From Candidatus Parcubacteria bacterium (GTDB taxonomy: Bacteria; Patescibacteriota; Minisyncoccia; JACPXH01), in assembly GCA_016196625.1 (NCBI GenBank), contig JACPXH010000007.1, positions 18,631 through 82,630 on the forward strand: 64,000 nt of DNA. Reading direction: 5' to 3'. How positions within the stretch are numbered: position 1 is the first letter of the stretch; every line of letters starts with the position of its first letter. Both the position numbers and the translations under genes were made by a program. The notes beneath the pieces are model-generated. The model worked only from the letters and a program-made list of their open reading frames with translations. It was not told the DNA's origin and did no database searches. Below, one piece after another: positions 8,455 to 40,046 of the stretch.

Positions 8455-8458
8455 GCCT

Positions 8459-9709: not shown

Positions 9710-9857
9710 GTTCAACACTGGCTTTTTCGGAATTTCGAAAAACATCTTTCAGCGATCGCCTATAGATGTTTATCCAGCACCTTTCAGAATACCCCGCGGG
9801 AAGGTGCTGGATTTATCTGTGCTTCGATCGTTTAACGGGTGCGACGTTCCCGGATTC

Positions 9858-11504: not shown

Positions 11505-11514
11505 GGTGAATGCA

Positions 11515-11544
11515 GAGCAGGTCCGCCAGCCGGCGGACCTGCTC
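11515..11544 (-). terminator. hairpin terminator downstream of hsp20 gene
   Basis: perfect 12-bp stem agcaggtccgcc/ggcggacctgct, loop agcc. Confidence 0.45.
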
Positions 11545-11574
11545 TAAGTTTCCAAAGCCGATACGGGAGCCCGG

Positions 11575-12117: not shown

Positions 12118-12123
12118 AGGAGT

Positions 12124-15302: not shown

Positions 15303-15381
15303 GGGCGGTGGTTGCGTTTTTTCCTGTGTATCCGTATTATGGCGATTCGGCTTGCAGCGCGCAACGATTGAGGAGGGGACG

Positions 15382-16047: not shown

Positions 16048-16079
16048 CGCATCTCGCGTTTGCTCTTGGGGGGTACACC

Positions 16080-16127
16080 GCGGCCGATCGCTCAACGCGT
16101 TGAGCGATCGGCCGCAATTCTTTTTAT
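16080..16127 (+). terminator. Rho-independent terminator (perfect 18-bp palindrome + T-run)
   Basis: gcggccgatcgctcaacg|cgttgagcgatcggccgc then aattcttttta. Confidence 0.65.
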
Positions 16128-16153
16128 GCGTCGCCGCGCACGCCATGCGGGTT

Positions 16154-17334: not shown

Positions 17335-17411
17335 TCCCGCAGAGCATACCGGAATTATTGCCGCTTTTCAATCTTTTTGGTACTCTATTGCAATACAAGG
17401 CGAGGAAACGG

Positions 17412-17487
17412 GGCCCCATCGTCTAGAGGCCCAGGACACGAGCTTTTCAAGCTCGGTACATGGGTTCGAATCCCATTGGGGCCGCCA
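17412..17487 (+). tRNA. tRNA-Glu (anticodon TTC) with encoded CCA
   Basis: acceptor GGCCCCA/TGGGGCC, anticodon stem CGAGC/GCTCG loop TTTTCAA, T-loop TTCGAAT. Confidence 0.88.
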
Positions 17488-28526: not shown

Positions 28527-28607
28527 TCGTTTCAGTATATCAGCACGGGGCGGTTAGACCGCAACACACCAGCGTCCCGCCAAATGGCGCGGCGCTGGTT
28601 AGGCGTG

Positions 28608-28679
28608 TGCCCTCGAGAGGAATCGAACCTCTATTACGAGATCCGCAATCTCGCGTCCTATCCGTTGAACGACGAGGGC
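28608..28679 (-). tRNA. tRNA-Arg with apparent anticodon GCG, no encoded CCA
   Basis: acceptor GCCCTCG/CGAGGGC, D-stem GTTC/GGAC, perfect anticodon stem CGAGA/TCTCG with loop TTGCGGA, T-arm AGAGG-TTCGATT-CCTCT. Confidence 0.75.
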
Positions 28680-28803
28680 GCGAGGCCGTCAATCCGCCCG
28701 CTGGCGGATTGAGCAAGACAATTTATTGTCTTGCGACGGCCGAGCGGGGCGCCACGATGCCGCACAGCGGCCGTGGCGCCCGGGGTATTCCTTATTCCGA
28801 GTT

Positions 28804-29364
28804 TCAAAATCCTAACCCGTCCGCAATCAGTTCCGCAAGCGACGGACGCTCTTCTTTCTCTGGCAGGAATTCAGCCACATATTCGTGCACTGCCGTCGGG
28901 TTTTGATTTGCCAAAGGGATAATAAGTACTGGCGTTAGCCACTGCGCAGTGCGCAGCCGTATCTCCCGACGACCTCCTGCGTCCGCAGACACCCAAAAGG
29001 AGTTCAATTCTTTCCACTCGCGGCGTTGTTGGTTGATCGTGACACCCGCGTGGTCAATGCGTACGCTCAAGAGGGCGGGTTGGCGCGAGCCGTAGACGAG
29101 AATGAGAATCGCGCCAAGCCCCACGATGACGACAAAGAGCGGGTTTTCCGTGAGTGCGCCGAAGATGGCGAAAATCGCCGCCGCACCAATCACGGTCAGG
29201 CGCCACCCCTTGGGCTTCGCGCGGTGCGTATATTCCGGCGCTTGCCACTCGAAAGAGGTTGCTTTTGGCACTGTGGTGGGTGTTTGGGTGCGGCCCGCAG
29301 GGGCAGCTGCCCCTGCGGGCCGCAGGTTTACGATAGGATTATTGGTTTCTGGAAGGAGAGGCAT
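28804..29364 (-). CDS. hypothetical membrane protein
   Basis: ORF 28804..29493; internal Met (MPLLPETNN) preferred because upstream part lies in AT-rich repeat. Confidence 0.4.
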   Translation of the reverse strand: MPLLPETNNPIVNLRPAGAAAPAGRTQTPTTVPKATSFEWQAPEYTHRAKPKGWRLTVIGAAAIFAIFGALTENPLFVVIVGLGAILILVYGSRQPALLSVRIDHAGVTINQQRREWKELNSFWVSADAGGRREIRLRTAQWLTPVLIIPLANQNPTAVHEYVAEFLPEKEERPSLAELIADGLGF

Positions 29365-29483
29365 CGGCGGAATTCCAAATATCAACCCCGTTAGAAAACA
29401 AGATTTTGTTCTATCGAAAGCGGAAACCCTATTTTTAGATGACGGGTCGAAGAAAGCAAGACCAACGAGTTTTCTAACGGGGT

Positions 29484-29571
29484 CAAAGCTCAAATGTCAA
29501 ATCAAGTTCAAAATCCAAGGCCCACAACGCTTTGAGCTTTGAATTTGATTTGTCATTTGGATTTTCTTACA
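29484..29571. repeat. AT-rich palindromic intergenic element, copy 2
   Basis: caaagctcaaatgtcaaatcaa ... ttgatttgtcatttggatttt; 22-nt block identical to copy 3. Confidence 0.6.
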
Positions 29572-30239
29572 ATGGCTATCGGCGTTTGTTCGTCTGATTG
29601 TCCCAGCGGGTTGTCGCGGAAGACGGCTTTGGCGAACTGGTCCGTGATACCCCCGCTTTTCCCGAGCACCGCAACCCCAAGATCATTGGCGTCAATGATG
29701 ACGACCGGCGCGCCTACGGCTGCGCTTAGCGCTATCGCGACGCGATCCGGTTCTTTGGGGCCGAGCTTGGCGTATTTATTGTAGGGCGGCAGGGTATAGT
29801 CGCACGGGCCATCGATGGCGGCGACAGTTGGTCCGGCAATTTTGTAGAACACGCCCCGGATACCGAAGGGTTTCGTGGATAAGGCGGCGAGTGCGGCCAG
29901 TATTATCCGCGCGGCACCAGCCTCCCGAACGGCAAGCTCCATAGTCCACGGGCTGCCCAGGCCAATTCCATAGGGAGATTTGTGGACGAACCGCACGAGG
30001 AGACGCGCCAGCCACGAGGGATTTATATCTTTAATGGGGAAGGCTCGGCCTTGGGCGATAGCCACGACGCGCTCGGCGATGAACACGTGGTCGTCTGGCT
30101 GCAAGTGCGGCCGGACATAGCGTTCCATGATGTTGGGCAGTTGATCGCGCGCCGTAATCACATGCGTGCGGATAGGCAGCCGTTGCCAGCGTTCCGCGCC
30201 GACCGCAATCTCAAGGCGTTTGTTTGGGTTGGGCGTCAT
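29553..30239 (-). CDS. CofE-family (F420-0:gamma-glutamyl ligase-like) protein
   Basis: core from MTPNPN.. resembles CofE/FbiB-N fold (DVVVSSK-like HVFIAERVVAIAQGRAF, GPxxAAIDGP, IIDANDLG). Confidence 0.45.
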   Translation of the reverse strand: MTPNPNKRLEIAVGAERWQRLPIRTHVITARDQLPNIMERYVRPHLQPDDHVFIAERVVAIAQGRAFPIKDINPSWLARLLVRFVHKSPYGIGLGSPWTMELAVREAGAARIILAALAALSTKPFGIRGVFYKIAGPTVAAIDGPCDYTLPPYNKYAKLGPKEPDRVAIALSAAVGAPVVIIDANDLGVAVLGKSGGITDQFAKAVFRDNPLGQSDEQTPIAIVRKSK

Positions 30240-30420
30240 CGGGCGATTCGAGTCTCTCCAGCGCGGCGAGCTCTTGGCGTAGGCCAGCGAGTAGTTTTTC
30301 TTGTTCAGCCGCAGTGAGGTCCGTAAAGATGTCTTGCCAGTACGAAAGTTCTTCGGCATCTTCGCCGTGGGAGACGAGTTTGCGGACGAGTTCACCGAGT
30401 TCTGGGCCTGGGTCGGTCAT
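30211..30420 (-). CDS. small hypothetical protein (69 aa)
   Basis: ORF only; overlaps neighbours by a few nt on both sides. Confidence 0.25.
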   Translation of the reverse strand: MTDPGPELGELVRKLVSHGEDAEELSYWQDIFTDLTAAEQEKLLAGLRQELAALERLESPDDAQPKQTP

Positions 30421-30983
30421 GCGGCAGCGGGCATATGTTTTTCAAAAGCAGCTCGCACCGAAGCGCCGATGCCCGCGAAGCGCTCGCGCTGGCGCATGGC
30501 CACGGTGGCGGTGCGGTCGAGCAGGTGCGCGGTTTTGGGGAAACGTTCAGCCGCAAGCCGTGCGGTCTCGGCCAGAAATTCAGGGCCGTATTCGACCTTC
30601 GAGAGTACCGCAGCAGCGGCGCGAGCCGCAATGGCTTCAGCGGGCAGGCCGGCAAACTCAAGGGCGTAGGCGAGCGAGGTAGCCCCAGCGATCGCGAAGT
30701 GATCGAAGCGGTGGCGACTCGAGAGCTTTTCGCCGCTTACAGTTTCACCTCGGAGCGCCTCCCCGATCATCTTAGGCACGTCAATTCCGGGGAGGAAATT
30801 ACCGATGAGATCTGCGGTTCGGGAAGTGAAAATTTCTTTGAGGAGGTTTCGGCGGCCCGCGCGGGCGTGCTCGATGATTTGCTCGCGCGTCTCGGCGCGT
30901 TGCTCGACGATTGGCTCCGGCGTTGCGGGTTCTGGATTCGACGGCGTCCCGCCGTGAGGTTGCTCAAAATGATTGCGCATCAT
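30417..30983 (-). CDS. hypothetical protein (188 aa)
   Basis: ORF with Ala-rich helical C-terminal half; no family recognised. Confidence 0.4.
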   Translation of the reverse strand: MMRNHFEQPHGGTPSNPEPATPEPIVEQRAETREQIIEHARAGRRNLLKEIFTSRTADLIGNFLPGIDVPKMIGEALRGETVSGEKLSSRHRFDHFAIAGATSLAYALEFAGLPAEAIAARAAAAVLSKVEYGPEFLAETARLAAERFPKTAHLLDRTATVAMRQRERFAGIGASVRAAFEKHMPAAA

Positions 30984-31136
30984 CTACGCGCGAATGAAAC
31001 CAGGAGCGATGTGTCTGGTCGGAGCGTGCCCATGGCGCCACTATAAACCGCGAGGCTCTTGGGCGCAAAGGCCATGAGCCTTGAGTCCAGCCGCGGAGTC
31101 AACTAGGGCAAATTCCGAGAGCCGTGGTTGGGGCGT

Positions 31137-31553
31137 TTACCGCCAAACCGCAAGAAGTGCGCCCATGACTAGGAGCGAGACGAGGTAGTAGCCGGCGTTG
31201 ATTTTGAGCAGCTTTACGGGTTTGCCTTCCCAGAGATAGGCAGCTAGAAACACCGGCGCGATAAACCCTAGCCAGAGCCAGAAGCCCGTCTTAGCGCCAA
31301 GCGCAGCAGTCTCGGCGCGGGTAAAGTACACAAAGTGCTGGAGCGTAGCCGCCATCACCAGCGCACCCACAAAACCAAGCGCGTAGGTGCGTTTCATCCC
31401 TTTCTTGCGCGACTCAAGTTCTTCGTGGCTCCAGCCCATCGCCTTGAGCCAGGCTTTGCCAAAGAGCGTGGGCGAGTACCAAGCTGCGCCGAGCGCCGTG
31501 CTGACGATGGCAGCGCCGATGATGGGCAGCCAGTTAAGGTAGAATTGGGGCAT
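31137..31553 (-). CDS. DUF1761-like small membrane protein
   Basis: 4 TM helices, WYSPTLFGKAW motif. Confidence 0.45.
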   Translation of the reverse strand: MPQFYLNWLPIIGAAIVSTALGAAWYSPTLFGKAWLKAMGWSHEELESRKKGMKRTYALGFVGALVMAATLQHFVYFTRAETAALGAKTGFWLWLGFIAPVFLAAYLWEGKPVKLLKINAGYYLVSLLVMGALLAVWR

Positions 31554-31610
31554 GTGTAGTCTCCTTGTGTATTAGTTTTTATGCAGAAAATTGACCGAAT
31601 TTCTGCAATT

Positions 31611-32066
31611 TTATTTTGTTTTTCTTTGACGACGCAACTTGCTCCTGAATCTCAGCAAATATCCATTTGCCTCCTTCGTAATAAAACTCTTTGTATCGTC
31701 CCCCTTATTAAAAAGACTCAATGCCTCTTTGAAAGAAAGCCAAGCAAACCCAGCGCCTTCATCGAATCTGAATTCTCTAGTTTTATATTTTGGATAAATG
31801 ATATAATGCATCTTCTCATTTTTATTGTGCGCTAAAACTTTGATGCATTTTTGTTCGACTGATACGCCAAGCTCTTCGTACAACTCACGTTCAAGCGCAT
31901 GGTTTGGATCATCTAAGTCTGCCGACTCGAGGGAGCCACCAAAATAGTCCCACTTATTTGGACTTGATATATCTCGTTTATCATCGCGCTTGTGGACTAA
32001 AACCAGTTTCTTATTTGGATCATAGAGGAAAAATCCAACCCGTGTGATTTTTTGCTTTCTTGGCAT
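31611..32066 (-). CDS. NUDIX hydrolase
   Basis: Nudix box GGSLESADLDDPNHALERELYEELGV. Confidence 0.75.
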   Translation of the reverse strand: MPRKQKITRVGFFLYDPNKKLVLVHKRDDKRDISSPNKWDYFGGSLESADLDDPNHALERELYEELGVSVEQKCIKVLAHNKNEKMHYIIYPKYKTREFRFDEGAGFAWLSFKEALSLFNKGDDTKSFITKEANGYLLRFRSKLRRQRKTK

Positions 32067-32483
32067 ATATCAAAGTATTATACGCTGAATTCAAAACGGC
32101 TTGAAATTTCCCCGAAAAACGGCTGGCGAGCCCGCGTATTTGTCCCTCGTAGCCCGAAGGGCGAAGTGGGAGCGGGCGAGCCAATGACTTCATTTCCTAA
32201 CTGGCGGTGTCTGTTTGAAAATATCCGAACGGAACTCTCTGGGCCCCGCCTGCGTTGAAACTTCGGCGGGCAGGTCGGCGGGCGGCCCCGCAACTATCTC
32301 GCTTCGCTCGAAGTGCGGGGTAAAAATTCCCCCCGACCCCCTGGAGTTTATCCCGCATAATCCCGAAGGGATTTGTGCGGGGCCCGCCTCGCCTTGCCTG
32401 CCCGACCGATAGGCGGGAACCGGAGCGGAAAGCATGCCCCGTAGTGAACGCGGAGCGTTCTACTACTGGGGGCGATTTCAAGT

Positions 32484-32819
32484 CTACATCGGCAACGGCA
32501 TTGATTCGTGCACTTCGATTTCACATCCACTTGACCACTCAAGATGGGGGTGTCCCTTAAGCATCGCTACGGCGTCTTTCATACTTTCAGCTTGCAGAAT
32601 TGAGTAGCCAACAACATCTTTGTCGCTCGGAGAGGTTCCGTCTTTGGTAACTTTTTGTCCATTAGCCAAAGGAGTTCCCATGTCCACAAGCCCACTACCA
32701 CATTTTTTAGCCCATGCCATCCACGGTTCCATCCCCTTTTTCATGTCTTCTGGGCTTACGTCTTTCATACCCGCCATTGCACTTTTTGACATGTGATAAA
32801 CTACAATAAATTTTTTCAT
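32484..32819 (-). CDS. YciI-like/DGPF-domain small protein (tentative)
   Basis: 111-aa ORF, loose resemblance to YciI-like alpha+beta barrel proteins. Confidence 0.3.
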   Translation of the reverse strand: MKKFIVVYHMSKSAMAGMKDVSPEDMKKGMEPWMAWAKKCGSGLVDMGTPLANGQKVTKDGTSPSDKDVVGYSILQAESMKDAVAMLKGHPHLEWSSGCEIEVHESMPLPM

Positions 32820-32917
32820 AGTCGTTGCATTTTTAATGATTTATTACTCGACCTTGATGGTATTGTACGCTAAGGAAAGAATGATCTCAAGTTTTTCTTT
32901 GGCGGCAATGCTGGAGA

Positions 32918-33208
32918 TTACAATCTGAAATAGAAAACAGGAGCACATGCCGCAAGTATGGCAACAATTTGAATTGCGAGGACCAAGAGCACTTGCTTTG
33001 GTCTCTGCGGCAACCACCTAATTGCGAAAAACGACACCATCAGTACTTCTAGAACTAGCCAAATTTGAAATAGATGTGCGCCCGTTCCTTCATCTGGCTG
33101 ACGGACGGGAACGCCGGATATCGCAATATAAATCAGCATTGTAGCCAAAACAATCAACGACATTGCTATTGGAATCCAAGCACTAGGCTTTTTTATTGTT
33201 GAATTCAT
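32918..33208 (-). CDS. small membrane protein (3 TM)
   Basis: 96-aa hydrophobic ORF; preceded by island repeat tctcaagtttttctttggcgg. Confidence 0.35.
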   Translation of the reverse strand: MNSTIKKPSAWIPIAMSLIVLATMLIYIAISGVPVRQPDEGTGAHLFQIWLVLEVLMVSFFAIRWLPQRPKQVLLVLAIQIVAILAACAPVFYFRL

Positions 33209-33394
33209 GGGCTTATCTCAAGTTTTTCTTTGGCGGAATACAAATTTGAGCGTGCGGAGTGCTCATGATTAGCTCTTTATAAAAAGAGGATGTGTGGTTC
33301 TATCGGTTGTGTTGCTCCAAGTCAGGATTTTTTCGGTAAAGAAAATATTGTACTAGAGTGATTCCCCACATGATAATGCCGACAGAAAAAGATA

Positions 33395-33592
33395 TTAGAG
33401 GTAGAAAGGCGTGGGTAGCATAAAAAAATGCAATTTGAGAAGCGTAAAAACATAGGCAATCAATATTGCCGTTACCGGTTGCCCGGATCTCTTTTCGCGA
33501 TAATTTTTTGCTATCTGGGCTGGTATGCCAACCAACACTAGGGTGAGTGCAAAAACGCTTACTAAAATGCTAAGAAAAAATATTAAGTCCAC
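33395..33592 (-). CDS. small membrane protein (65 aa)
   Basis: two TM helices; AT-rich. Confidence 0.25.
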   Translation of the reverse strand: MDLIFFLSILVSVFALTLVLVGIPAQIAKNYREKRSGQPVTAILIAYVFTLLKLHFFMLPTPFYL

Positions 33593-33783
33593 GATTATTT
33601 ACAGAATTATGGAAAAAATGTTTCTTTTGCCTTTATGGTTCGATAAGCTCACCACAGGTTGATACATCTTCTTCGTTTTCCTTGTCCGCCAAAGCCTTGG
33701 CGACGGCGGAGCCAAAAAATCCCTTTCAAATCCTAGCCGAGCGGCGCGTCCCGTGCCGCGAGCCAATGACTTCATTTCCCAAC

Positions 33784-33875
33784 TGGCGGTGGGCAGAGGA
33801 TTCGAACCTCTGTGGGATTTTTTAGATCCCCGCAGTTTAGCAAACTGCTGCCTTAAGCCACTCGGCCAGCCCACC
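33784..33875 (-). tRNA. tRNA-Ser (anticodon GCT), long variable arm, CCA encoded
   Basis: acceptor GGTGGGC/GCCCACC, D-arm TGGCCGAGTGG, anticodon stem GCAGT/ACTGC loop TTGCTAA, variable arm GGGGATCTAAAAAATCCCAC, T-loop TTCGAAT. Confidence 0.88.
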
Positions 33876-34004
33876 ATTTTAAATTTCTCGGCAAAGCCTA
33901 ATCAAGTCGTGGTCTCGTGTCTTCCCTGGCGACTTTTTGTCGCCCGTCAAAAGCTGCGCACGCTCGCTTTTGACCCACTCAGCCACGCCTCCTCCTTGTA
34001 TCCC

Positions 34005-34108
34005 TAACTGGCGGTGTATATTGAAAATAGCTCGAACGGAATTCTGTCCTCGCCCGCCTGCGGCGGGCTCGGGTCGGGAGGGCAAAAAATCCGCGCGGCT
34101 CCGCCGCG
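34005..34108. repeat. inverted repeat IRa-left (exact partner at 34870-34968); begins with tRNA-Ser 3'-end-like aactggcggtg and degenerate T-arm
   Basis: reverse complement of 34870-34968 matches over ~99 bp with no mismatches seen. Confidence 0.7.
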
Positions 34109-34148
34109 AACATTAACAATTTCAAGTTTTTCTTTGGCGGCAATTACG

Positions 34149-34790
34149 TTATTTTGAAAATTTAAAAGAATTGATCATTTCCAGAAATATCTCATCGGGT
34201 GCGGGCGCTTCTGTATCTCTCTGTTTGACCAGAAGATAAAGCCAACTATCCCTAGTCACAAATGCATTCTCAAGGTAACTATTTTCTCCCCCGAATGAGG
34301 CGTATATAACGGGAATGTATTTTCCTTTTACGCCATCGAAGAATGGTATTAATGCTTTTTCTTCCTCAATATCCCGAGGGAATCCAAGAAACGTATTGGA
34401 ATTCAAGAAGTTAAGATTTTGTGGTGAAGCGGTGAAGCTCGGCGCAACATATAATTCGGCCCCGCAAGAAAATTCCCTTTGATGAACTGGAGTAAAGCAA
34501 ATACTGTATAAAGAATTTAGTTTTGGTTCAGGGTAAAAATAAGGCGGTGGTATGGGATTCTTATCCTTGGGAAGTGTGTGGTCTTGTTCCAGTGGTTTTA
34601 AATCACTTGGATATTTTATCTCAAATCCATATTTTTCATTTCTATATGTTTTCCAGGTAAAAGTTTTAATCTGACTCAGAGGTTCCGGTTTTAGCGGCAG
34701 AGGAACATTTCCCGATTTTTTTGCAATAAAATAGCTTGCTAACACTATAATTGCAACGATTATTATTACCCAAGTTACTTTTGTTCTCAT
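34149..34790 (-). CDS. hypothetical secreted/membrane-anchored protein bracketed by IRa pair
   Basis: MRTKVTWVIIIVAIIVLASYF signal/anchor; AT-rich; ORF-track N-terminal extension is read-through of IRa. Confidence 0.5.
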   Translation of the reverse strand: MRTKVTWVIIIVAIIVLASYFIAKKSGNVPLPLKPEPLSQIKTFTWKTYRNEKYGFEIKYPSDLKPLEQDHTLPKDKNPIPPPYFYPEPKLNSLYSICFTPVHQREFSCGAELYVAPSFTASPQNLNFLNSNTFLGFPRDIEEEKALIPFFDGVKGKYIPVIYASFGGENSYLENAFVTRDSWLYLLVKQRDTEAPAPDEIFLEMINSFKFSK

Positions 34791-34869
34791 ATGATTAAAA
34801 AATTCCCCAAAAATTAAAATATGGTTCGAGCCGATTTGTTTTTCAGGTTCTTTGGCAGTTTGGGATCTT

Positions 34870-34968
34870 TGCGGCGGAGCCGCGCGGATTTTTTGCCCTC
34901 CCGACCCGAGCCCGCCGCAGGCGGGCGAGGACAGAATTCCGTTCGAGCTATTTTCAATATACACCGCA
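34870..34968. repeat. inverted repeat IRa-right
   Basis: see IRa-left. Confidence 0.7.
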
Positions 34969-35066
34969 AGTCAGGAAAACGCAAATTATGGACAGATGCC
35001 TCGCGGCGCGGGACGCGCCGCTCGGCTAGGGTTTGAAAGGGCTTTTTTGGCGAAAAGGAAAGGGAT
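34964..35066. repeat. inverted repeat IRb-left (partner 36478-36578, ~97% identical), abuts IRa-right
   Basis: caccgcaagtcaggaaaacgcaaattatggacagatgcctcgcggcgcgggacgcgccgctcggctagggtttgaaagggcttttttggcg is the reverse complement of 36478-36578. Confidence 0.7.
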
Positions 35067-35105
35067 TTATCAATCAGGGCAAAAGAATTTTTTAACTACA
35101 AAACT

Positions 35106-36656
35106 ATGAGATATATAATTTACGCGAGGAAATCCACGGAGAGTGAGGAACGACAGATATTAAGCATTGAATCTCAAATATCTGAATTGAAAGAATTTGC
35201 CGCCAAAGAAAAACTTGAAATTGTTGCCTCGCTTTGCGAAGCCCAAACTGCCAAAGAACCTGGGCGAATGAAATTCGCAGAGATGTTGTCATTTTTGGAA
35301 TCAGGAAAAGCAGACGGAATACTTTCTTGGAATCCAGATCGTCTCGCCAGAAATTCCATAGACGGAGGACAGATTATCTATCTGTTGGACACAGGAAAGA
35401 TAAAAGATTTGAAATTTCCAACGCACTGGTTTGAGAATACACCGCAAGGAAAATTCATGCTGAACATTGCCTTTGGGCAAAGCAAGTATTATGTGGACAA
35501 TTTGAGTGAGAACATCAAGCGTGGACATAGGGCAAAACTACGAAAAGGAATTTGGCCGAGCTTTGCCCCACTAGGATATACGAACAATCACAAAACGCGA
35601 GATGTTGATGTTGATTTGGAGAAAGCTCCGCTAGTCCGAAAAGGTTTTGAGCTTTACTCAACTGGTAAATATACCCTTAAGCAAATAGCTAAAATTTGGA
35701 AAGATCTCGGATTGCGGAGCTACAAAGGCAATGTTCTAGCAGTTTCCTGTGTCCAGCGAATTTTGAAAAGTACATTTTACTATGGAATTTTCGAGTTCAA
35801 TGGCGAGACGTATCAAGGTTCGCACGAGCCGTCAATCTCAAAGAAACTTTTTGATAACTGTCAGGAAATAATGAAGGATCGCGGACATATTATGACTAGA
35901 AAATCAGAGAAAACTTTTCCATTTCGCGGTTTGCTCACTTGTGGAGAATGTAAATGCGCCATTACCGCCGAAACACAAAAAGGACACAACTATTATCGTT
36001 GCACCAAGAAGCGCGAACTGTGTTCACAAAAATATGTCCGCGAAGAATTGCTCACCGAGCAAGTAAAAAGTTTTCTTCAAAAAGTTTCTTTGCCGAGCCA
36101 AGACATGGAAAAAGTTTTGCGCGAGTTGGACAAGGACGAGCAGAAAGCAAGAGAGGATAGTTTAGCTCTGGTTAGTACTTTGAAAAATGATTTAGTGGAC
36201 ATAGAAACAAGGTTAGACAAATTGCTTTCTGCTTACCTCGATAAAGTAATTACATCGGAAGAATATGCCGCGCAAAAACAAAAAATGCTCGACCAGAGAG
36301 TAGAGCTGAAAGAGAAAATTCATGAAATCGAGGATAAAGGCGTGTCTTGGCTCGAACCAGCTCGTGCGTGGATTAAATCCTTGAATCAAGCGGAGAAACT
36401 GCTTTTGTCTGGGGATAAGTCGGAAATGACAACATTTCTAAAACAAATCGGCTCGAACCATATTTTGATCGATAAATCCTTTTCTTTTTCGCCAAAAAAG
36501 CCCTTTCAAATCCTAGCCGAGCGGCGCGTTCCGCGCCGCGAGGCATCTGTCCATAATTTGCGTTTTCCTGACTTGCGGAAGCGGGAGGATTCGAACCTCC
36601 GAAGGGGACTAGCCCCCAACTGGTTTTTCCCGATTTTGTTCACGCGGAACGCGTGA
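35106..36656 (+). CDS. large serine recombinase (resolvase catalytic domain + recombinase domain + zinc ribbon); C-terminal ~40 codons likely read-through into IRb-right
   Basis: YARKSTESEERQ..SIESQ catalytic Ser motif, ILSWNPDRLARN, CGECKC..YYRC zinc ribbon, coiled-coil; AT-rich. Confidence 0.8.
   Translation: MRYIIYARKSTESEERQILSIESQISELKEFAAKEKLEIVASLCEAQTAKEPGRMKFAEMLSFLESGKADGILSWNPDRLARNSIDGGQIIYLLDTGKIKDLKFPTHWFENTPQGKFMLNIAFGQSKYYVDNLSENIKRGHRAKLRKGIWPSFAPLGYTNNHKTRDVDVDLEKAPLVRKGFELYSTGKYTLKQIAKIWKDLGLRSYKGNVLAVSCVQRILKSTFYYGIFEFNGETYQGSHEPSISKKLFDNCQEIMKDRGHIMTRKSEKTFPFRGLLTCGECKCAITAETQKGHNYYRCTKKRELCSQKYVREELLTEQVKSFLQKVSLPSQDMEKVLRELDKDEQKAREDSLALVSTLKNDLVDIETRLDKLLSAYLDKVITSEEYAAQKQKMLDQRVELKEKIHEIEDKGVSWLEPARAWIKSLNQAEKLLLSGDKSEMTTFLKQIGSNHILIDKSFSFSPKKPFQILAERRVPRREASVHNLRFPDLRKREDSNLRRGLAPNWFFPILFTRNA
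36478..36578. repeat. inverted repeat IRb-right
   Basis: see IRb-left. Confidence 0.7.
36579..36650 (-). pseudogene. tRNA 3'-half-like fragment (T-arm GGAGG-TTCGAAT-CCTCC + acceptor 3' strand, no matching 5' acceptor)
   Basis: ggaggattcgaacctcc on + strand; no complementary GGAAGCG 5' strand found. Confidence 0.4.
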
Positions 36657-36683
36657 TTACAAAATCGAGGATCCCGTCCAAAG

Positions 36684-36770
36684 CGGCGAGGGTGAGATTC
36701 GAACTCACGATACCCTTTCGGGTATACCTGTTTTCAAGACAGGTCTGTTCAACCACTCCAGCACCTCGCC
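36684..36770 (-). tRNA. tRNA-Ser (anticodon TGA), long variable arm, no encoded CCA
   Basis: acceptor GGCGAGG/CCTCGCC, anticodon stem CCTGT/ACAGG loop CTTGAAA, variable arm TATACCCGAAAGGGTATC, T-loop TTCGAAT. Confidence 0.85.
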
Positions 36771-36822
36771 GCTTTGTTCGGGACAAGACCGTTCCTTTCA
36801 ACCACTCAGGCACCCCGCCGCA

Positions 36823-37527
36823 TTATCTGGCCACAACTACGCCCCACACTTCCCTTGCGCCGGCTGACCGTAAGGCCCGCGCGCACGCAGAGAGTGTGGC
36901 GCCAGTGGTGGCTACATCATCTACGAGGACAATCACCCTTGGCAAGATTCGCGCGTTTCCGGAGAGTGCAAAAGCTCCGGCCACGTTGGCCCGGCGCAAA
37001 TCTGGATTCGAAAGTTCTACTTGCGGTTTGGTCCTGCGAGTTCGGATAATGGCCGGCACGAGAGGGAGATTGAAGGTTGCGGCCAGAGAGGCGGCTAGCA
37101 GTTCTGCCTGATTGAAGCCGCGCTCGTGCAGGCGGGAGGGGTGGAGCGGCACCGGCACGAATACGGCATCACGGGTCAGATGCGGCGCGAATTCCCGGAG
37201 GGTTCCCGCAACCAAGTGGGCTAGGATCGTGGTAATTTCGCGTACCCGCTGGTACTTTAGTTCGTGGATGAGTTCTCGCGCGAGCGGATCGCCGTAGGAG
37301 AGGCTGGCTACGAGGCCCGTAAGATTGAGCTTTTTGCGGCATGCGCCACAGGTTCGGCCGTCCGGCCGGCGCCGACCGCAAGCAAGGCAGGTGAGCCCAG
37401 GCAGTTTTACAAGACGGGCCGCGCAGGCGGAGCAAAGGTACGCTCCTTCAGTGCCGCACCCCACACACTGGCGCGGAAAGAGAAGGCTTAACCCGGCCGA
37501 GTAGAGGTTGCGTCCAAACGCGAGCAT
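36823..37527 (-). CDS. comF: ComF-family competence protein (zinc-finger + phosphoribosyltransferase domain)
   Basis: CVGCG..CSAC..CLACG Cys clusters; VLVDDVATTGATL PRTase motif. Confidence 0.8.
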   Translation of the reverse strand: MLAFGRNLYSAGLSLLFPRQCVGCGTEGAYLCSACAARLVKLPGLTCLACGRRRPDGRTCGACRKKLNLTGLVASLSYGDPLARELIHELKYQRVREITTILAHLVAGTLREFAPHLTRDAVFVPVPLHPSRLHERGFNQAELLAASLAATFNLPLVPAIIRTRRTKPQVELSNPDLRRANVAGAFALSGNARILPRVIVLVDDVATTGATLSACARALRSAGAREVWGVVVAR

Positions 37528-40046
37528 CAGCGGATCATCAGCCGGTTCGCCTTGAGGCTCACATGCACGCGCGTCTTCTTTGCCCCGCGCCGGATGAGCA
37601 ATTGCGCCAGCGGGTTTTCCAGCTTGTCCTCGAGGATTCTCCGTATGAGCCTCGCGCCCTCGCTGGGCTTCCAGGATGTCCGGCTAAGCAGTTCTTCGAC
37701 GCCTGGACCGATCGAGAGCGCGCAGCCACGTTGGGCAAGCCGTTTTTTAAGCGCGGCCGTATGCAGGCGCACGATCGACAAGATGGCCTTGGGGTCGAGC
37801 GGCCGGAAGACGATCGTGTGATCAATGCGGCTTAGGAGTTCCGGGCGGATCGTGTGCTTTAAGGTGGAGAGTGTTCGCTCCCGGATCGTTTGGAATGAGT
37901 CAAGCGCTCGCTCGCGGGACGAGAAGCCGAGTGCGGCGGCCCGGGTGAATTCCTCGGTGCCGATGTTCGAAGTGAGGATGATGATGGTGTGGGAGAAGTT
38001 GATGTGCCGGCCGTGGCTGTCGGTCAGAATGCCGTCTTCCAGAATTTGCAGCAGGATGTTATGGACCTGCGGGTGGGCTTTTTCAATCTCATCAAGCAGC
38101 AGGAGCGAGAAGGGGTTTTTGCGGATCGTTTCAGTGAGCGCGCCGCCCTCTTCGTAGCCCACGTATCCGGGCGGAGCGCCGATGAAGCGCGCGATCGAGT
38201 GGGGTTCGCTGTATTCAGACATGTCGACTTTGAGCAGCGCTTCGGGTTTGCCGAAGATCGTCTCGGCGAGCACCCGGGCCAGTTCTGTTTTGCCCACTCC
38301 GGTTGGCCCCAGAAACAAGAATGAACCCCACGGTCGTCTTTCCCCGGTGAGCCCCGCTCGGGCGCGTCGCAGCGTTTTGGCGACCGCCGAGATGGCCTCG
38401 GGTTGGCCTAGCACCCGCCGGGCGAGCACGCGCTCGAGAGCCAAGAGCTTCGCAGCCTCGCCTTTCTCCATGTCGTGGACGGGTATGCCGGTCATTTGCG
38501 CGACCGTGGCTCTTACGTGTTCCGGTTTGAGCGTTGGTTTAACCAGAGTTGGCAGAGCGGTCGTGTGGGTGCGCAGCGTTCCCACGGACAGTTCAAGACT
38601 GCGTTGTTCACGCTGGACCGCGAGCGCCCGTTCGTATTCGCCGGCAAAAATTGCCTGCTTAAGCTCTCCGGCCAGACGTTCACGATCGAAGCGGAGCGCC
38701 TTGAGCCGACTTTCTGCTGGGCGGAGGGGCTCGCGCGTTCTGAGCCGCGAGGCAGCTTCGTCCAATACATCGAGCGCCTTATCCGGCAGGACCCGTTCGT
38801 GCAGGTACCGATTTGCGAGCCGCACGGTCTCCCGCAGAGCCTCCGGGGTGATGGCGATGGCGTGATGGTTTTCGTAGGCGGGCTTTAGTCCTTCTAAAAT
38901 TTGGTAAGTTGCTTCTGGCGTGGCTTCCGGCACGAGCACGGGCTGAAACCTGCGTTCGAGAGCAGCGTCTTTTTCGATGTAACGATGGTACTCGTCCAGC
39001 GTCGTTGCCCCGATACATTGAATGTCGCCGTGGGCTAGGGCGGGCTTCAAGATGTTGGCCGCATCGAGCGATCCTTGGGCTGAACCAGCTCCAACCACGT
39101 TATGCACTTCGTCTATGAACAGGATGGCGTGTTTGTGTTTGGCTTCGCGGAGGATGTCTTTGAGGCGCCCTTCGAATTCACCTCGAAAGACCGTGCCGGC
39201 AATCACCAGTCCCAAGTCAAGGGCAATGAGTTTGCGAAAAGTGAGGTGTTCGGGCACACGGCCCTCGGCCATGCGCCGGGCAAGCCCGTAGACAATGGCC
39301 GTTTTTCCCACGCCTGGTTCGCCAATGAGAATGGGGTTGTTTTTGCTGCGGCGCGAGAGAATATGGACGAGCCGTTCCTGTTCAGCTTCGCGGCCAATGA
39401 GGATGTCGAGCTCGCCTGATTTTGCTCGTTCCACGAGGTCGTCTCCGAAGTGGGCGAGGGCTGATTTGGTATCGTCACCGCGCGGCTCTGCCACTGAACG
39501 AGCCTCCAAGTGGTTAGAGGTGTTCGGCCGGCGGTGAACGCCAAGCAGCTGAGTCAGCTCTTGGAGCGATTTGCCTGCGGGCAAGGCGGCGATGGTGTCC
39601 GCGGAAGGAAAAGTCGAAAAACTCGCAAAGACCTCTTCGAGATGCGCGCGGAGTTTGTTAAGGGTTGCTGTTTTTACGGTGGTGCCGTGGTAGGGGGTCG
39701 GGCCCAAGCCGATCAATCCGTAGAGAAGGTGTTCGGTGCCGATGTAGCGGTTACCGTGTTTTGCCGCCGCAGCCGCCGCGTGCTTGAGGCCGGCTTTGAC
39801 AAAGGGTGCCAACGAAAGATCCGTTTCCTTTAGGGTCGACGCTCCCCGGAGCGTCCCGTCAGTCAGTCCGTAGTGCCGCAACATGAGGCTCGCGAGAGAG
39901 CCGTTTGTTTTTGCGAGTCCAGCTAAAATGATAGCCGGAGTGAGCGCGGTTGCGGACTCGCGCGCGAGGTGCTCTGCTTTGCCCAGCGCCTCGCGGGCGC
40001 GGTGGGTGAGCCGCTCAAGGTAGCTCTCGGGCAGCCAGTGATTCAT
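37527..40046 (-). CDS. clpC: ClpC/ClpA-family AAA+ chaperone (two AAA modules)
   Basis: N-domain repeats, GEPGVGKTAIV and GPTGVGKTELAR Walker A, sensor motifs; 839 aa. Confidence 0.88.
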   Translation of the reverse strand: MNHWLPESYLERLTHRAREALGKAEHLARESATALTPAIILAGLAKTNGSLASLMLRHYGLTDGTLRGASTLKETDLSLAPFVKAGLKHAAAAAAKHGNRYIGTEHLLYGLIGLGPTPYHGTTVKTATLNKLRAHLEEVFASFSTFPSADTIAALPAGKSLQELTQLLGVHRRPNTSNHLEARSVAEPRGDDTKSALAHFGDDLVERAKSGELDILIGREAEQERLVHILSRRSKNNPILIGEPGVGKTAIVYGLARRMAEGRVPEHLTFRKLIALDLGLVIAGTVFRGEFEGRLKDILREAKHKHAILFIDEVHNVVGAGSAQGSLDAANILKPALAHGDIQCIGATTLDEYHRYIEKDAALERRFQPVLVPEATPEATYQILEGLKPAYENHHAIAITPEALRETVRLANRYLHERVLPDKALDVLDEAASRLRTREPLRPAESRLKALRFDRERLAGELKQAIFAGEYERALAVQREQRSLELSVGTLRTHTTALPTLVKPTLKPEHVRATVAQMTGIPVHDMEKGEAAKLLALERVLARRVLGQPEAISAVAKTLRRARAGLTGERRPWGSFLFLGPTGVGKTELARVLAETIFGKPEALLKVDMSEYSEPHSIARFIGAPPGYVGYEEGGALTETIRKNPFSLLLLDEIEKAHPQVHNILLQILEDGILTDSHGRHINFSHTIIILTSNIGTEEFTRAAALGFSSRERALDSFQTIRERTLSTLKHTIRPELLSRIDHTIVFRPLDPKAILSIVRLHTAALKKRLAQRGCALSIGPGVEELLSRTSWKPSEGARLIRRILEDKLENPLAQLLIRRGAKKTRVHVSLKANRLMIR

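Follow-up and report, generated by a model that had tools for sequence, protein, structure and literature searches.

Several integrative systems driven by large serine recombinases (LSRs) have been described. SCC elements are 20-60 kb long, usually require a CcrA/CcrB pair, and target rlmH (orfX). SCCmec and its Ccr recombinases are also mentioned in work on the ssrA-specific islands of Dehalococcoides, whose DsiB is a CcrB-like large serine recombinase; some of these islands lack an integrase and are candidate cis-mobilisable units (PMC3146451). At the level of the sites themselves, serine integrases show a zinc-ribbon motif that is shifted by 5 bp between attB and attP, lying closer to the crossover in attB (PMC3783163).

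The locus considered here lies in a window of 64,000 nt from a Candidatus Parcubacteria genome, and very probably represents an accretion of small integrative elements of one family, mobilised by an LSR at tRNA 3' ends, that together make up a 5.1-kb AT-rich stretch. No description of this element type was found in the literature. GC content is 0.44 across the island (31560 to 36680) and 0.58 in the remainder of the window. The sharp drop near 31560 and the recovery after 36680, noted in an initial sequence-only reading, were confirmed in 400-nt windows, most of which have a GC content of 0.39-0.46 between 31400 and 36600, compared with 0.56-0.64 in the flanks. Third-position GC (GC3) of individual genes is 0.31-0.45 in the island and 0.65-0.72 in the host. 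By base composition and GC3, the island is foreign. Its gene content was borne out as well: Nudix, YCII-like (a weak match), small transmembrane ORFs and a large serine recombinase. The inverted repeats are real and form two pairs, 95% and 96% identical. What did not survive is the picture of a single island between two tRNA-Ser genes. There are instead several units of 2-3 kb, and only one of the two live tRNA genes stands at an edge, the other lying in mid-island:

33784-33875, minus strand: live tRNA-Ser(GCT), target of E-left and E0 (ARAGORN; Rfam, 54.6 bits; orthologous tRNA in host relative L088)
36683-36770, minus strand: live tRNA-Ser(TGA), right edge of the AT-rich stretch (ARAGORN, Rfam); it takes part in no junction of the elements described here

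The units are delimited by their junctions. Five junctions in the window share a common core, which is the final 8 nt of tRNA-Ser(GCT), and the pairings of their four arm types are precisely those expected of attB, attP, attL and attR. These junction sequences delimit one complete and two decayed elements, and the pile-up would consist of one complete element and at least two decayed ones at two tRNA-Ser 3' ends. A motif reported to recur at 32183 and 33765 does so (CCAATGACTTCATTTCCYAACTGGCGGTG, found at 32181 and 33763, with 0 occurrences expected by chance). It had been taken for 29 nt of tRNA flank and end, yet only its final 8 nt are tRNA sequence (TGGCGGTG, which is CACCGCCA in reverse complement); the remainder comes from the end of an element's arm. 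The complete element, E-right, runs in the order attL, cargo module, inverted attP-like junction, recombinase module, attR:

34009-36578: E-right, complete, about 2.57 kb, at a relic tRNA-Ser 3' end
33925-33997, minus strand: relic of a tRNA-Ser 5' half (GGAGGCGTGGCTGAGTGGG...), from alignment with tRNA-Ser genes
33998-34113, plus strand: IRa left arm, which is the A arm (I1, 116 nt, 95% identical to 34865-34980)
34009-34016, plus strand: attL core TGGCGGTG at junction J3 (native-like trailer, core, A arm)
34115-34150, plus strand: cargo-module copy of the m site, directly after the stop of cargo gene X (I5, 36 nt, 92% identical to 35190-35225; 28/28 matches)
34149-34790, minus strand: cargo gene X, 213 aa, with an N-terminal TM anchor, weak PsbP_2 similarity and GC3 of 0.31
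34813-34842, plus strand: c', inverted copy of recombinase codons about 446-455 (I6, 97%)
34844-34864, plus strand: n', inverted copy of recombinase codons about 46-52 (I10, 100%)
34865-34980, plus strand: IRa right arm (I1), with an outward-facing terminator at 34870-34893 (terminator scan)
34962-34969, minus strand: internal inverted attP-like core at junction J4; in minus-strand reading, TTGCGGTG stands between the B-arm end and the A-arm start
34964-35076, plus strand: IRb left arm, an inverted B-arm copy upstream of the recombinase gene (I2, 113 nt, 96%)
35106-36656, plus strand: LSR gene, 516 aa (PF00239, PF07508, PF13408)
35190-35225, 35242-35262 and 36440-36469: repeats m*, n* and c*, respectively, inside the LSR gene
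36466-36578, plus strand: IRb right arm, which is the B arm (I2), ending in the attR core TTGCGG (36573-36578) at junction J5
36575-36623, minus strand: relic of a tRNA-Ser 3' part, comprising variable arm, T arm and the 3' strand of the acceptor (from alignment); it forms attR on the tRNA side

At its left end, attL joins native trailer, core and A arm, and at its right end attR joins B arm, core and the tRNA-Ser 3' relic. One cargo gene thus lies between A-arm inverted repeats of about 115 nt, and the LSR gene between B-arm repeats of about 113 nt. The IRa left arm contains a GC hairpin and a P' half-site whose YCGAAY motif lies at +18; the terminator scan also places the intrinsic terminator of the cargo gene in this arm, at 34085-34108 on the minus strand. 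Copies c' and n' occupy equivalent positions in most related loci. The 5'-half relic, which neither ARAGORN nor Rfam calls, lies 13 nt downstream of the attL core and resembles the 5' half of the second tRNA-Ser(GCT) of L088. The 3' relic is 82-89% identical to tRNA-Ser 3' parts of L088 and 86-100% identical to intact tRNA-Ser 3' ends that adjoin the LSR in five loci (L016, L020, L026, L035, L084), as well as to an intact tRNA-Ser elsewhere in locus L071. With a tRNA fragment at attR and arms that are 95-96% rather than about 100% identical, the E-right copy may be inactive.

The recombinase has Resolvase, Recombinase and Zn_ribbon_recom domains and the motif YARKSTES...DRLAR, and its ORF continues across the B arm and on into the relic of the tRNA. 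A homolog search returned thousands of relatives, at no more than 90% identity in that search. The best named matches, XisF and CcrB (E about 1e-27), fall far below their cutoffs, and a PDB search gave no full-length relative. The gene shows peaks of synonymous-site conservation.

To the left of tRNA-Ser(GCT) lie the two decayed elements:

31605-32201, minus strand: E0, the oldest and most decayed remnant, with Nudix cargo (GC 0.39, GC3 0.39); its left limit is approximate
31611-32066, minus strand: Nudix gene, cargo of E0 (NUDIX domain, E = 1.3e-10)
32202-33783: E-left, recombinase-less, at live tRNA-Ser(GCT), with arms and cargo remaining
32202-32209, plus strand: core copy TGGCGGTG at junction J2 (repeats D1, D5)
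32210-32425, plus strand: variant A arm of E-left, in which a long GC-rich hairpin follows a half-site of P' type (TGTCTGTTTGAAAATATCCGAACGG)
32484-32819, minus strand: YCII-like cargo ORF of E-left, 111 aa (Pfam YCII, E = 1.4e-4, below the gathering cutoff; GC3 0.45)
32884-32909, plus strand: m copy between the YCII-like and TM96 ORFs (D3, I7; 25/28 matches)
32918-33208, minus strand: TM96, cargo ORF of E-left for a small membrane protein
33215-33240, plus strand: m copy that precedes the minus-strand start codon of TM96 by 6 nt (D3, I9)
33395-33592, minus strand: TM65, a possible decayed cargo ORF and uncertain gene with only a weak DUF3302 match
33711-33783, plus strand: B-arm remnant of E-left (D2, 93% identical to 36491-36545; D1 present)

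The remnant at 33711-33783 abuts the 3' end of tRNA-Ser(GCT) in an attR-type junction, J1, and its D1-type arm also flanks the LSR of locus L032. E0 ends in a 26-nt B-arm terminus of D1 type at 32176-32201 (repeats D1, D4), and 32085-32207 is homologous to sequence adjoining a D1-type arm in L004. At J2 the core lies between the B-arm end of E0 and the A-arm start of E-left; the D1-type B-arm end and variant A-arm start are both present around the LSRs of L032 and L004. The junction marks the addition of one element beside another, E-left having inserted between tRNA-Ser(GCT) and E0. The 43-mer at 32202-32244 is 100% identical in L004, and two 43-mers of the variant A arm are matched at 100% identity in L004 and L032. 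E-left is a copy from a sister subfamily and has had its recombinase gene deleted. The GC-rich block at 32236-32560 had been described as a diverged IRa copy. This applies only to its first 43 nt (77%, D5), while 32244-32425 is a separate long hairpin (fold z = -7.05); the block really ends near 32430, and the YCII-like ORF occupies sequence from 32484 on. Homologs of that ORF were absent from 80 related loci, and a Pfam search with TM96 gave no match.

A 25-nt motif recurs as first noticed, with an exact 19-nt core at 32887, 33218 and 34122 (0 expected); the tRNA origin suggested for it gives way to an origin in the recombinase gene. It is the reverse complement of recombinase codons 31-38, and a fourth, inverted copy lies inside the recombinase ORF at 35197-35221. 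The full site, m, is a 34-bp stretch of that gene with conserved synonymous positions and copies at cargo boundaries. Sequence at 33220-33259 is 95% identical to an m flank in L031. A best guess is that m serves as a secondary LSR site where cargo modules are rearranged or lost. A weak m-like 14-mer (31618-31631) adjoins the Nudix stop in E0.

At least 80 genomes of Patescibacteria carry this element, and the 80 loci of the family set (numbered with L; L088 and L089 are host relatives lacking the LSR) point to a widespread, large and stereotyped family with unusually rigid architecture. The order is fixed: attL, cargo between 100-nt inverted repeats, inverted attP-like junction, recombinase between a second repeat pair, attR. 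IRa, IRb and the inverted m copy occur together in 29 of the 47 loci with enough upstream DNA. Within a genome the arms are nearly perfect (median identity 100% for IRa, 98.7% for IRb), and arms of the window element are 74-96% identical to those of other genomes. A tRNA gene 3' end begins 1425-1485 nt after the LSR ATG in 58 of 69 loci, the tRNAs at these 58 being Ser (22), Leu (11), Arg (8) and eight other kinds. Three junctions are found in 28 loci, namely B-end and core against tRNA, B-end and core against A-start, and unrelated flank against core and A-start. Measured from the core, YCGAAY stands at +13 towards the tRNA (54/55) and at +18 towards the A arm (35/35), which is the 5-bp attB/attP shift of serine integrases. 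Cargo is unrelated across loci, with a mean identity of 8%, many different Pfam families, and a different cargo at nearly every locus.

In the host relatives L088 and L089, the gene order ClpC-ComF...DUF1761-next gene is syntenic and the LSR is absent. From tRNA-Ser(GCT) to DUF1761 there are 69 nt in L088, which has no island, and 2230 nt in the window. The best host comparison has only 60% ComF identity, and the searches recovered neither an excised circle nor a near-identical strain with an empty site. The proposal of repeated site-specific integration and decay at tRNA-Ser through a large serine recombinase is upheld by the junctions, the relative without the island and the foreign composition. 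The outcome set against that proposal was an island shared by the relatives and resembling the host in codon usage; instead, a syntenic relative lacks the island, and composition and GC3 are foreign.

By the mechanism envisaged, the LSR would bind an attP of about 50 bp made of B-arm end, core and A-arm start, and its attB partner would be the tRNA acceptor and T-arm plus trailer. Strand exchange would take place inside the reverse complement of the discriminator and CCA (GCGG in Ser-type, TGC in A73-type elements); the crossover overlap is 3-4 nt. The tRNA would be left intact because the element brings a new CCA end and trailer, and the A-arm terminators would insulate the cargo gene. Neither a second conserved gene nor a conserved directionality factor was present in the family comparison, so that the model does not account for excision. 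Several features also lie outside simple attP x attB recombination, which neither requires nor explains them: the attP-like junction in inverted orientation, the duplication of the 100-nt arms, and the repeats m, n, c and p.

These features could be read as the work of an enzyme that is mainly a DNA invertase, the repeat pairs and m/m* bounding phase-variation segments that toggle expression of the cargo gene or the recombinase, and the tRNA link being incidental. Inverted repeats of more than 100 nt, about 100% identical within genomes, do bracket both modules. The m and m* sites are inverted, m* lies in the 5' coding region of the recombinase gene, and the enhancer of Hin/Gin-type invertases likewise lies in a 5' coding region. 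In L020, L066 and L083 a cargo ORF replaces the recombinase N-terminus, joined at m*. Such a switch is nevertheless improbable. Orientation is fixed, with m beside IRa-L and n' beside IRa-R in 29/29 complete loci and about 35 with IRa; the recombinase 3' end invariably points toward the tRNA, and no flipped isomers were seen in these loci. Inversion between m and m* would strip the catalytic Ser10 from the enzyme and would therefore be a one-way event rather than a switch. Junction triads with unrelated left flanks in every host require integration.

Two further readings are at least as doubtful. One acquisition of a single island (or prophage, since reduced to a remnant) between DUF1761 and ComF would suit a continuous low-GC block with one recombinase gene, and internal duplication and decay could in principle produce the repeats. 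It does not account for a right unit of 2.6 kb that dozens of unrelated hosts have whole, its internal order unchanged, at different tRNAs, nor for left arms of a different subfamily that surround other recombinases (L032, L004), nor for a live host tRNA-Ser(GCT) between the units; a profile search found no phage or conjugation genes, and a search of IMG/VR gave no close relatives. The highly conserved architecture, and the very widespread link to tRNA 3' ends and the ComF/tRNA-Ser neighbourhood, might suggest that Patescibacteria have domesticated the recombinase and its repeats as a feature of their tRNA loci, inherited vertically and no longer mobile, with a role such as processing or rearranging tRNA gene clusters. 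Vertical descent is hard to reconcile with LSRs that are 86-93% identical across candidate phyla or classes where the neighbouring ComF is only 31-36% identical, an element GC3 about 0.3 below that of the host, and variable cargo. The orthologous site in L088 is without an element, and one MAG, for example, has three paralogous copies at different tRNAs (L016, L042, L044).

Accretion of LSR-mobilised elements, the reading preferred here, invites comparison with several known systems, some by resemblance only. The elements share with Hin, Gin and Cin a cis element that lies within the serine recombinase gene itself, in its 5' coding part, and the yeast 2-micron FLP/FRT plasmid recalls the predicted excised circle, split into two unique segments by inverted sites; here there is no Fis-type enhancer context, flipped isomers were not observed, and replication functions are absent. 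Integron cassettes are also single, promoterless-looking ORFs, each with a conserved short site at its 3' end, and short arrays of this kind stand beside the recombinase gene in the window (32884, 33215, 34119) and in L004, L031 and L060. Integrons, however, use the tyrosine recombinase IntI and a folded single-stranded attC, whereas the enzyme here is a serine recombinase and m, at which recombination is presumed, is a 34-bp double-strand-type site that is also part of the enzyme's coding region. Like SCCmec with its Ccr recombinases, these are LSR-driven, cassette-like elements at the 3' end of a conserved gene, with tandem accumulation and recombinase-less pseudo-elements, but the SCC target is not a tRNA and SCC lacks the inverted-repeat architecture.

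Phage-type serine integrases (LI/A118, Bxb1, phiC31) have the same three-domain enzyme, to which this LSR has only remote sequence similarity, a quasi-symmetric attP of about 50 bp, and hybrid attL and attR. Unlike them, the present elements form no prophage and have no identifiable directionality factor; their target is the T-arm/CCA end common to all tRNAs, with retargeting across at least 11 types of tRNA, and they duplicate their attP arms in inverted orientation within the element. The ssrA islands are much larger, and their integration module has six genes, a second, small serine recombinase among them (PMC3146451), whereas an element here is about 2.6 kb long and has a single recombinase and a single cargo gene. 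Crossover in the islands falls in the tmRNA T-loop with a 20-bp repeat, as opposed to the discriminator and CCA with a 3-8 nt repeat, and the islands are not reported to have nested inverted repeats, an m site or an inverted attP-like site in their interior (PMC3146451). In both systems, all the same, an LSR integrates low-GC DNA at the 3' part of a gene for a small structured RNA. That gene is kept whole, a short direct repeat of its 3' end lies at the far boundary, and elements stack in tandem by accretion (PMC3146451).

The AT-rich stretch noticed in the sequence-only reading is borne out by its base composition and by the codon usage of its genes. In 400-nt sliding windows the flanks on both sides have a GC content of 0.56-0.64, and most windows from 31400 to 36600 fall at 0.39-0.46, the stretches 32000-32800 and 33600-34200 being richer in GC. 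Mean GC is 0.44 in the island versus 0.58 in the remainder of the window, and GC at third codon positions is 0.31-0.45 in six island ORFs versus 0.65-0.72 in four flanking host genes. The tRNA genes were called with ARAGORN and Rfam, and the proteins were classified with Pfam.

33784-33875, minus strand: tRNA-Ser(GCT)
36683-36770, minus strand: tRNA-Ser(TGA)
35106-36656, plus strand: large serine recombinase (LSR), 516 aa, with Resolvase, Recombinase and Zn_ribbon_recom domains
within the island: Nudix ORF
within the island: YCII-like ORF, a weak match below the gathering cutoff
within the island: small membrane ORFs, assigned to no family
left of the island: host gene for a DUF1761 protein
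right of the island: host genes for ComF and a ClpC-like ATPase

The stretch qualifies as a tRNA-associated genomic island on three counts: it adjoins a tRNA gene, the 3' end of that tRNA is directly repeated at the opposite limit, and its composition deviates. The tRNA-Ser(GCT) gene, previously placed at the left edge, lies inside the AT-rich stretch according to both ARAGORN and Rfam. All of the repeats named earlier are real, with none expected by chance, and three details of them had to be corrected. The 25-nt motif has a fourth copy, inverted, within the LSR ORF (35197-35221); only the last 8 nt of the 29-nt motif described as tRNA flank plus tRNA end are tRNA sequence; and the GC-rich block taken for a copy of the IRa repeat aligns with IRa over its first 43 nt only, the rest (32244-32425) forming a separate long hairpin. 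Neither this block nor the repeat arms contain a known RNA family, an Rfam scan of 28000-40000 at E <= 1 having returned three tRNAs and chance matches only. No domains of structural, replication or conjugation genes, such as would indicate a prophage or an ICE, occur among the island ORFs, and a scan of IMG/VR with the LSR found no close relatives. Exact look-ups of the LSR, DUF1761 and Nudix proteins gave no record, those of ComF and of the YCII-like ORF returned nothing but short unitigs of the same samples, and a metagenome scan with DUF1761 yielded a single distant, uninformative match. Outside the island, an AT-rich segment at 29380-29570 (GC dip to 0.49-0.50), flanked by a 229-aa ORF and an F420-ligase-like gene, carries a long palindrome; its matches in Rfam are chance microRNA matches only.

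The recombinase has an N-terminal resolvase catalytic domain (PF00239, residues 4-149, E = 1.8e-20), and its sequence IIYARKSTES...NPDRLARN places Ser10 within R-x-S, the usual context of the serine nucleophile. C-terminal to the catalytic domain are PF07508 (residues 172-259, E = 4.5e-15) and a zinc ribbon (PF13408, residues 272-324, E = 3e-10). The segment beyond residue 324 has enough length for the coiled-coil insertion that governs directionality in such enzymes. A homology search returned thousands of homologs (more than 7000) at up to 90% identity; the few with a name belong to metagenome-assembled genomes (MAGs) of the Parcubacteria group. Kinship to XisF and Ccr is remote (E ~1e-27, far below the family cutoffs), and no full-length solved structural relative was found.

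The LSR belongs to a complete element, E-right (34009-36578), which is built on two adjoining pairs of inverted repeats, and five junctions in the island (J1 to J5) combine one core with four kinds of arm. In what follows, an asterisk denotes the copy of a short repeat that lies in or at the LSR gene, and unstarred or primed letters denote inverted copies beside the cargo.

33998-34113 and 34865-34980: IRa pair (A arms), inverted repeat around a 213-aa cargo ORF on the minus strand
34964-35076 and 36466-36578: IRb pair (B arms), inverted repeat around the LSR gene, the right arm coding for the LSR tail
34115-34150: m, inverted copy of LSR codons 29-40, beside the cargo ORF
34844-34864: n', inverted copy of LSR codons 46-52, beside the cargo ORF
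34813-34842: c', inverted copy of LSR codons ~446-455, beside the cargo ORF
36550-36600: J5, B-arm end, TTGCGG and tRNA body; attR
34940-34985, minus strand: J4, B-arm end, TTGCGG and A-arm start; attP-like, inverted
33998-34045: J3, trailer, TGGCGG and A-arm start; attL
33758-33810: J1, variant B-arm end, TGGCGG and the live tRNA-Ser(GCT); attR of another element
32176-32244: J2, variant B-arm end, TGGCGG and variant A-arm start; accretion junction

The tRNA at J5 is a 3' fragment only, comprising the variable arm, T arm and acceptor strand. A terminator scan identified the inner ends of the A arms as intrinsic terminators pointing out of the cargo module.

These junctions behave as the attachment sites of an integrative element. 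The same triad, in which the B-arm end and core meet a tRNA, the B-arm end and core meet an A-arm start, and a host flank meets the core and A-arm start, is present in 28 loci (the window and 27 others). The host flanks at the left, attL-type junctions are unrelated between hosts, and attL and attR are hybrids of an element site and a host site with a short common core. This core is TGGCGG at tRNA-Ser genes (discriminator G) and TGGTGC at tRNAs with discriminator A, and the bases that all three junctions have in common confine the crossover to GCGG (Ser type) or TGC (A73 type). Read on the opposite strand, these are the final bases of the acceptor, the discriminator and the first C of CCA. The distance from the core to the motif YCGAAY, the T-loop on the tRNA side, is 13 nt in 54 of 55 tRNA-side junctions and 18 nt in all 35 A-arm junctions. 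Rutherford et al. placed the zinc-ribbon-domain motif of serine integrases at positions 16-24 of attP half-sites and 5 bp nearer the centre in attB (PMC3783163), and the spacings of +13 and +18 agree with that shift. From these two registers it follows that the A-arm start mimics a tRNA T-arm in the attP register. An inferred attP x attB reaction thus has strong sequence-level support from the junctions and the YCGAAY register, and the island is probably the product of integrative elements.

The element is one of a large family. A scan of one genome per species located 80 loci at 55-93% LSR identity, with hosts in the Zambryski-, Taga-, Nomura-, Yanofsky-, Jackson-, Lipton-, Doudna-, Vogel- and Sungbacteria, WWE3, Saccharibacteria and others. 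The layout, measured from the LSR start codon, is nearly uniform across these loci.

~-1100 to -1000: left IRa arm, followed by m
after m: single cargo ORF on the strand opposite to LSR
~-310 to -238: p, c' and n', followed by the right IRa arm
~-143 to -43: left IRb arm, after the right IRa arm
just before the LSR gene: p*, after the left IRb arm
+92 to 120, in the LSR gene: m*
+138 to 158, in the LSR gene: n*
+1335 to 1361, in the LSR gene: c*
+1361 to 1461/1473: right IRb arm
after the right IRb arm: tRNA gene on the strand opposite to LSR

A tRNA 3' end lies at +1425 to +1485 in 58 of 69 loci, the targets being tRNAs for Ser (22), Leu (11), Arg (8), Trp, Lys and Ala (3 each), Glu, Tyr and Phe (2 each), and Ile and Gly (1 each). 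Both arm pairs and the inverted m copy occur together in 29 of the 47 loci with enough upstream DNA. The arms are nearly identical within a genome (median identity 100% for IRa and 98.7% for IRb), whereas those of the window are only 74-96% identical to arms in other genomes, which points to concerted evolution within each copy. The cargo, meanwhile, differs in nearly every locus (mean identity 8% across 39 ORFs). It includes methyltransferases, a sodium:solute symporter, and HAD, EEP, MOSC, LigT and bPH_2 proteins, along with many N-terminally anchored proteins of no family; homologs of the window's cargo proteins were found in none of the other loci. Cargo is the only gene besides LSR and has no common family, so the element holds no candidate directionality factor, and one for excision might conceivably be supplied in trans.

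Several lines of comparison bear on mobility. At loci with both genes, the LSR is 86-93% identical to that of the window where ComF is only 31-36% identical, and several MAGs each contain multiple copies of the LSR element at different tRNAs. The nearest thing to an empty site comes from two related contigs (L088 and L089) in which ComF is 60% identical to the window's and DUF1761 is 71% identical at the nucleotide level. Flanking synteny is kept there, the interval between ComF and DUF1761 has different content with no LSR, and tRNA-Ser(GCT) lies 69 nt upstream of DUF1761 versus 2230 nt in the window; the relative is fairly distant, and the comparison serves for the left half of the island only. 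Excised circles, expected to show a B arm, core and A arm in direct orientation after the LSR, were found in none of the loci; the same search turned up an A-like sequence at offset 17 after the LSR of one locus (L044).

Three unitigs from Logan (L001, L002 and L085; SRR12113416/17) are 100% identical to the window and end at tRNA sites, at 36691/2 in the T arm of tRNA-Ser(TGA) and at 33787 at the tRNA-Ser(GCT) core. They could stop there because the population is heterogeneous at exactly these tRNA 3' ends, or simply for want of coverage. Elsewhere in L088, a 6-kb block of patchy GC (11368-17468) lies between two tRNA-Ser(GCT) copies and encodes a response regulator, FIST, a solute-binding protein, a histidine kinase and HMA; it may be another island bounded by tRNA-Ser, one without an LSR. 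A Yanofskybacteria contig (L003) holds an 11-kb low-GC block (6228-17429) with direct repeats of ~130 nt at its ends, each of which includes a complete tRNA-Ser; next to the distal tRNA is an additional, distinct LSR of 446 aa, and the 2.6-kb element is nested inside the block.

The history of the island can be read from its junctions. E-right would have entered a tRNA-Ser gene at its 3' end, and only the 3' part of that gene survives (36575-36623); the attL core of E-right is followed by a native-like trailer, GTTAGGGATACAA, and by the relic of the 5' half of a neighbouring tRNA (33925-33997). Adjoining the live tRNA-Ser(GCT) is the recombinase-less element E-left (32202-33783), with a B arm at 33711-33783 and a variant A arm at 32210-32425. 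Both arms are of a subfamily that surrounds the LSRs of two other loci (L032 and L004), with which they share 43-mers at 100% identity; E-left's own LSR is gone, and three small ORFs are kept with m copies between them at 32884 and 33215. At J2 the A arm of E-left is joined to the 26-nt end of another B arm, of the D1 type, a composition which suggests that E-left inserted between the tRNA and an older remnant, E0 (~31605-32201), whose surviving cargo is the Nudix gene. Read from the tRNA, the first 9 nt of the B-arm ends are GTTGGGAAA or GTTAGGAAA, resembling the native tRNA-Ser trailers of L088 (GTTGGGAAAA and GTTGGAAAGG), and a trailer-like B-arm end would let an old attR act again as a target. 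All told, the junctions resolve at least three integration events at two tRNA genes, in keeping with the repeated integration and decay proposed from the sequence; the finding is real and its earlier interpretation is supported.

The tRNA-Ser(TGA) gene carries a record of its own. A relic of a tRNA-Ser(TGA) 5' half (36784-36824) lies 13 nt upstream of the live gene; with its acceptor GGCGGGG it agrees with the intact tRNA of L087, the closest relative, and identity to L087 ends in the anticodon loop at 36784. The live tRNA has a different 5' half (GGCGAGG) and a compensating 3' strand, a pattern that points to an earlier, independent replacement within the anticodon loop.

Two features, the duplicated arms and the attP-like junction in inverted orientation, have no part to play in plain integration. 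On the cargo strand the cargo module runs A, n*, c*, p*, cargo, m* and inverted A arm, and the recombinase module runs p*, the N-terminal 28 codons, m*, n*, body and c*. The cargo slot corresponds to the position of the LSR N-terminal codons in the gene, and by this order the cargo module is a copy of the recombinase module with circular permutation and an internal deletion. Derivation from a head-to-head dimer, or from a reaction of attP with a pseudo-attB in the LSR gene, predicts junctions that do not match the observed ones. Nor do the short repeats and arms (m, n, c, p, IRa and IRb) form one nested RNA or ssDNA fold, as their pairs cross and give no coherent structure. The duplicated arms could provide insulation through the outward terminators of the A arms; together with the inverted junction they could also serve autoregulation, with LSR binding upstream of its own gene. 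A further possibility is that the inverted attP-like junction supports a flip-flop of a two-attP circle. Flipped isomers are absent from every assembled locus, both modules keeping a constant orientation in all complete loci, which makes an inversion switch unlikely as the main function. A rearranged second element occurs in L004 (in the region 1807-3385), downstream of a canonical LSR and a head-to-head tRNA-Ser pair. Here the first 158 nt of an LSR gene (N-terminus, m* and n*) are fused to two cargo ORFs, beyond which lie one more m* and a variant A arm in inverted orientation. The arrangement would fit an inversion of the recombinase module and a later deletion between copies of n*.

Among the short repeats, m stands out. 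In 56 diverse LSR genes third codon positions have a mean conservation of 0.64; the value rises to 0.96 over m* (codons 31-38), and c* (0.92) and four other short stretches are high as well. Over 27-29 nt, m is 100% identical in LSR genes that are ~66% identical overall, and an inverted copy lies at the 3' end of the cargo gene in 36 of 47 loci. An alignment made here matches m* with the opposite strand of the attP P half-site and core (CCGCCAAAGAAAAACTTGAAATTG versus CCGCCAGAAAGGAAATTGCAAATG) at 17 of 24 positions, in the same register. Three independent loci (L066, L020 and L083) have an LSR lacking its first 31-34 codons, catalytic Ser10 among them, and in each a cargo ORF on the same strand replaces the LSR N-terminus and ends just before m*. 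Truncated LSR genes in L033 and L065 have arbitrary breakpoints, indicating ordinary decay rather than a site-specific event. Eight loci have an insert exactly at the m centre (AAAG/AAAAAC). Seven of these inserts (L005, L011, L036, L046, L072, L076 and L083) are 65-76 nt long, with two hairpins and a promoter-like TTGAAA-N17-TAnnnT pattern, and the L083 insert additionally stands ahead of the truncated LSR body; in L020 the insert is a 20-nt GC palindrome (6990-7010). Copies of m lie at cargo boundaries, and short m-cargo arrays occur. Degenerate m copies at the stop codons of the Nudix and YCII-like ORFs did not score above chance as ungapped 28-mers.

The conservation of m, its copies at cargo ends, the N-terminal swaps and the central inserts argue that m is likely a site of DNA breakage and joining, at which the LSR may act. 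A more ambitious reading, towards which these observations also point, would make the 34-bp m (LSR codons 29-40) a second recombination site that mimics the attP P half-site and core, at which single-gene cargo units, lying between p (a copy of the LSR 5' leader) and an m copy, would be exchanged, stacked or lost. Since LSR codons 1-28/34, with the catalytic serine, occupy the position of the cargo-gene slot, recombination at m could replace the catalytic N-terminus, and such a swap would disable the LSR and lock the cargo in place. That m is a cassette-exchange site able to swap out the catalytic N-terminus is possible but less likely than not; on that reading the family would be the equivalent, among serine recombinases, of a gene-cassette system.

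Other conserved features of the LSR gene are harder to read. A perfect 16-nt inverted repeat at 35839-35854 and 36077-36092 (CAAAGAAACTTTTTGA / TCAAAAAGTTTCTTTG; LSR 734-749 and 972-987) is essentially invariant in 56 genes of 55-93% identity; being complementary yet invariant, it is uninformative on structure. The gene has another internal repeat at 173-193 and 1315-1335. The motif CAAAGAA(A)AC is common to this repeat, m* and n*. Third-position conservation is 0.89-0.96 in further stretches, including codons 413-420 and 54-61, for which no partner was identified.

The family is unusually compact, with one enzyme and one cargo gene in ~2.6 kb. Near-identical enzymes across the Patescibacteria imply that genes have recently moved between lineages believed to exchange DNA only rarely, and by reading the T-arm and the CCA end, which are universal, the family retargets among at least 11 tRNA types. 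Through its variable one-gene cargo, in many cases a secreted or membrane-anchored protein, it may channel rapid surface and metabolic variation in these episymbionts. Serine integrases are sought after as genome-engineering tools; one with a short, predictable, retargetable attB, apparently without accessory genes, could be useful, and the family could offer a route to genetic tools for the Patescibacteria, which have been largely intractable so far.

Large serine recombinases that integrate DNA at tRNA or tmRNA 3' ends are already known, and SCCmec works on a similar principle. Among described systems the nearest are the ssrA-specific genomic islands of Dehalococcoides. These low-GC islands at the tmRNA 3' end carry a CcrB-like LSR and 20-bp direct repeats, and occur in tandem, partly without an integrase (PMC3146451). 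Full-text searches of the literature collection on serine-recombinase elements of Patescibacteria or the CPR returned nothing relevant, and this compact, widespread serine-recombinase family targeting tRNA 3' ends, with stacked copies here, is apparently undescribed. Unlike an integron, with its tyrosine recombinase IntI, attI and attC cassettes, it uses a serine-type recombinase, and m is not an imperfect hairpin of the attC kind. It differs from the ssrA islands and SCCmec in its size of ~2.6 kb with one enzyme and one cargo gene, in a crossover at the discriminator and CCA that accommodates a range of tRNA targets, and in its nested repeats, internal attP-like site and m site, a rigid architecture outside the standard serine-integrase model.
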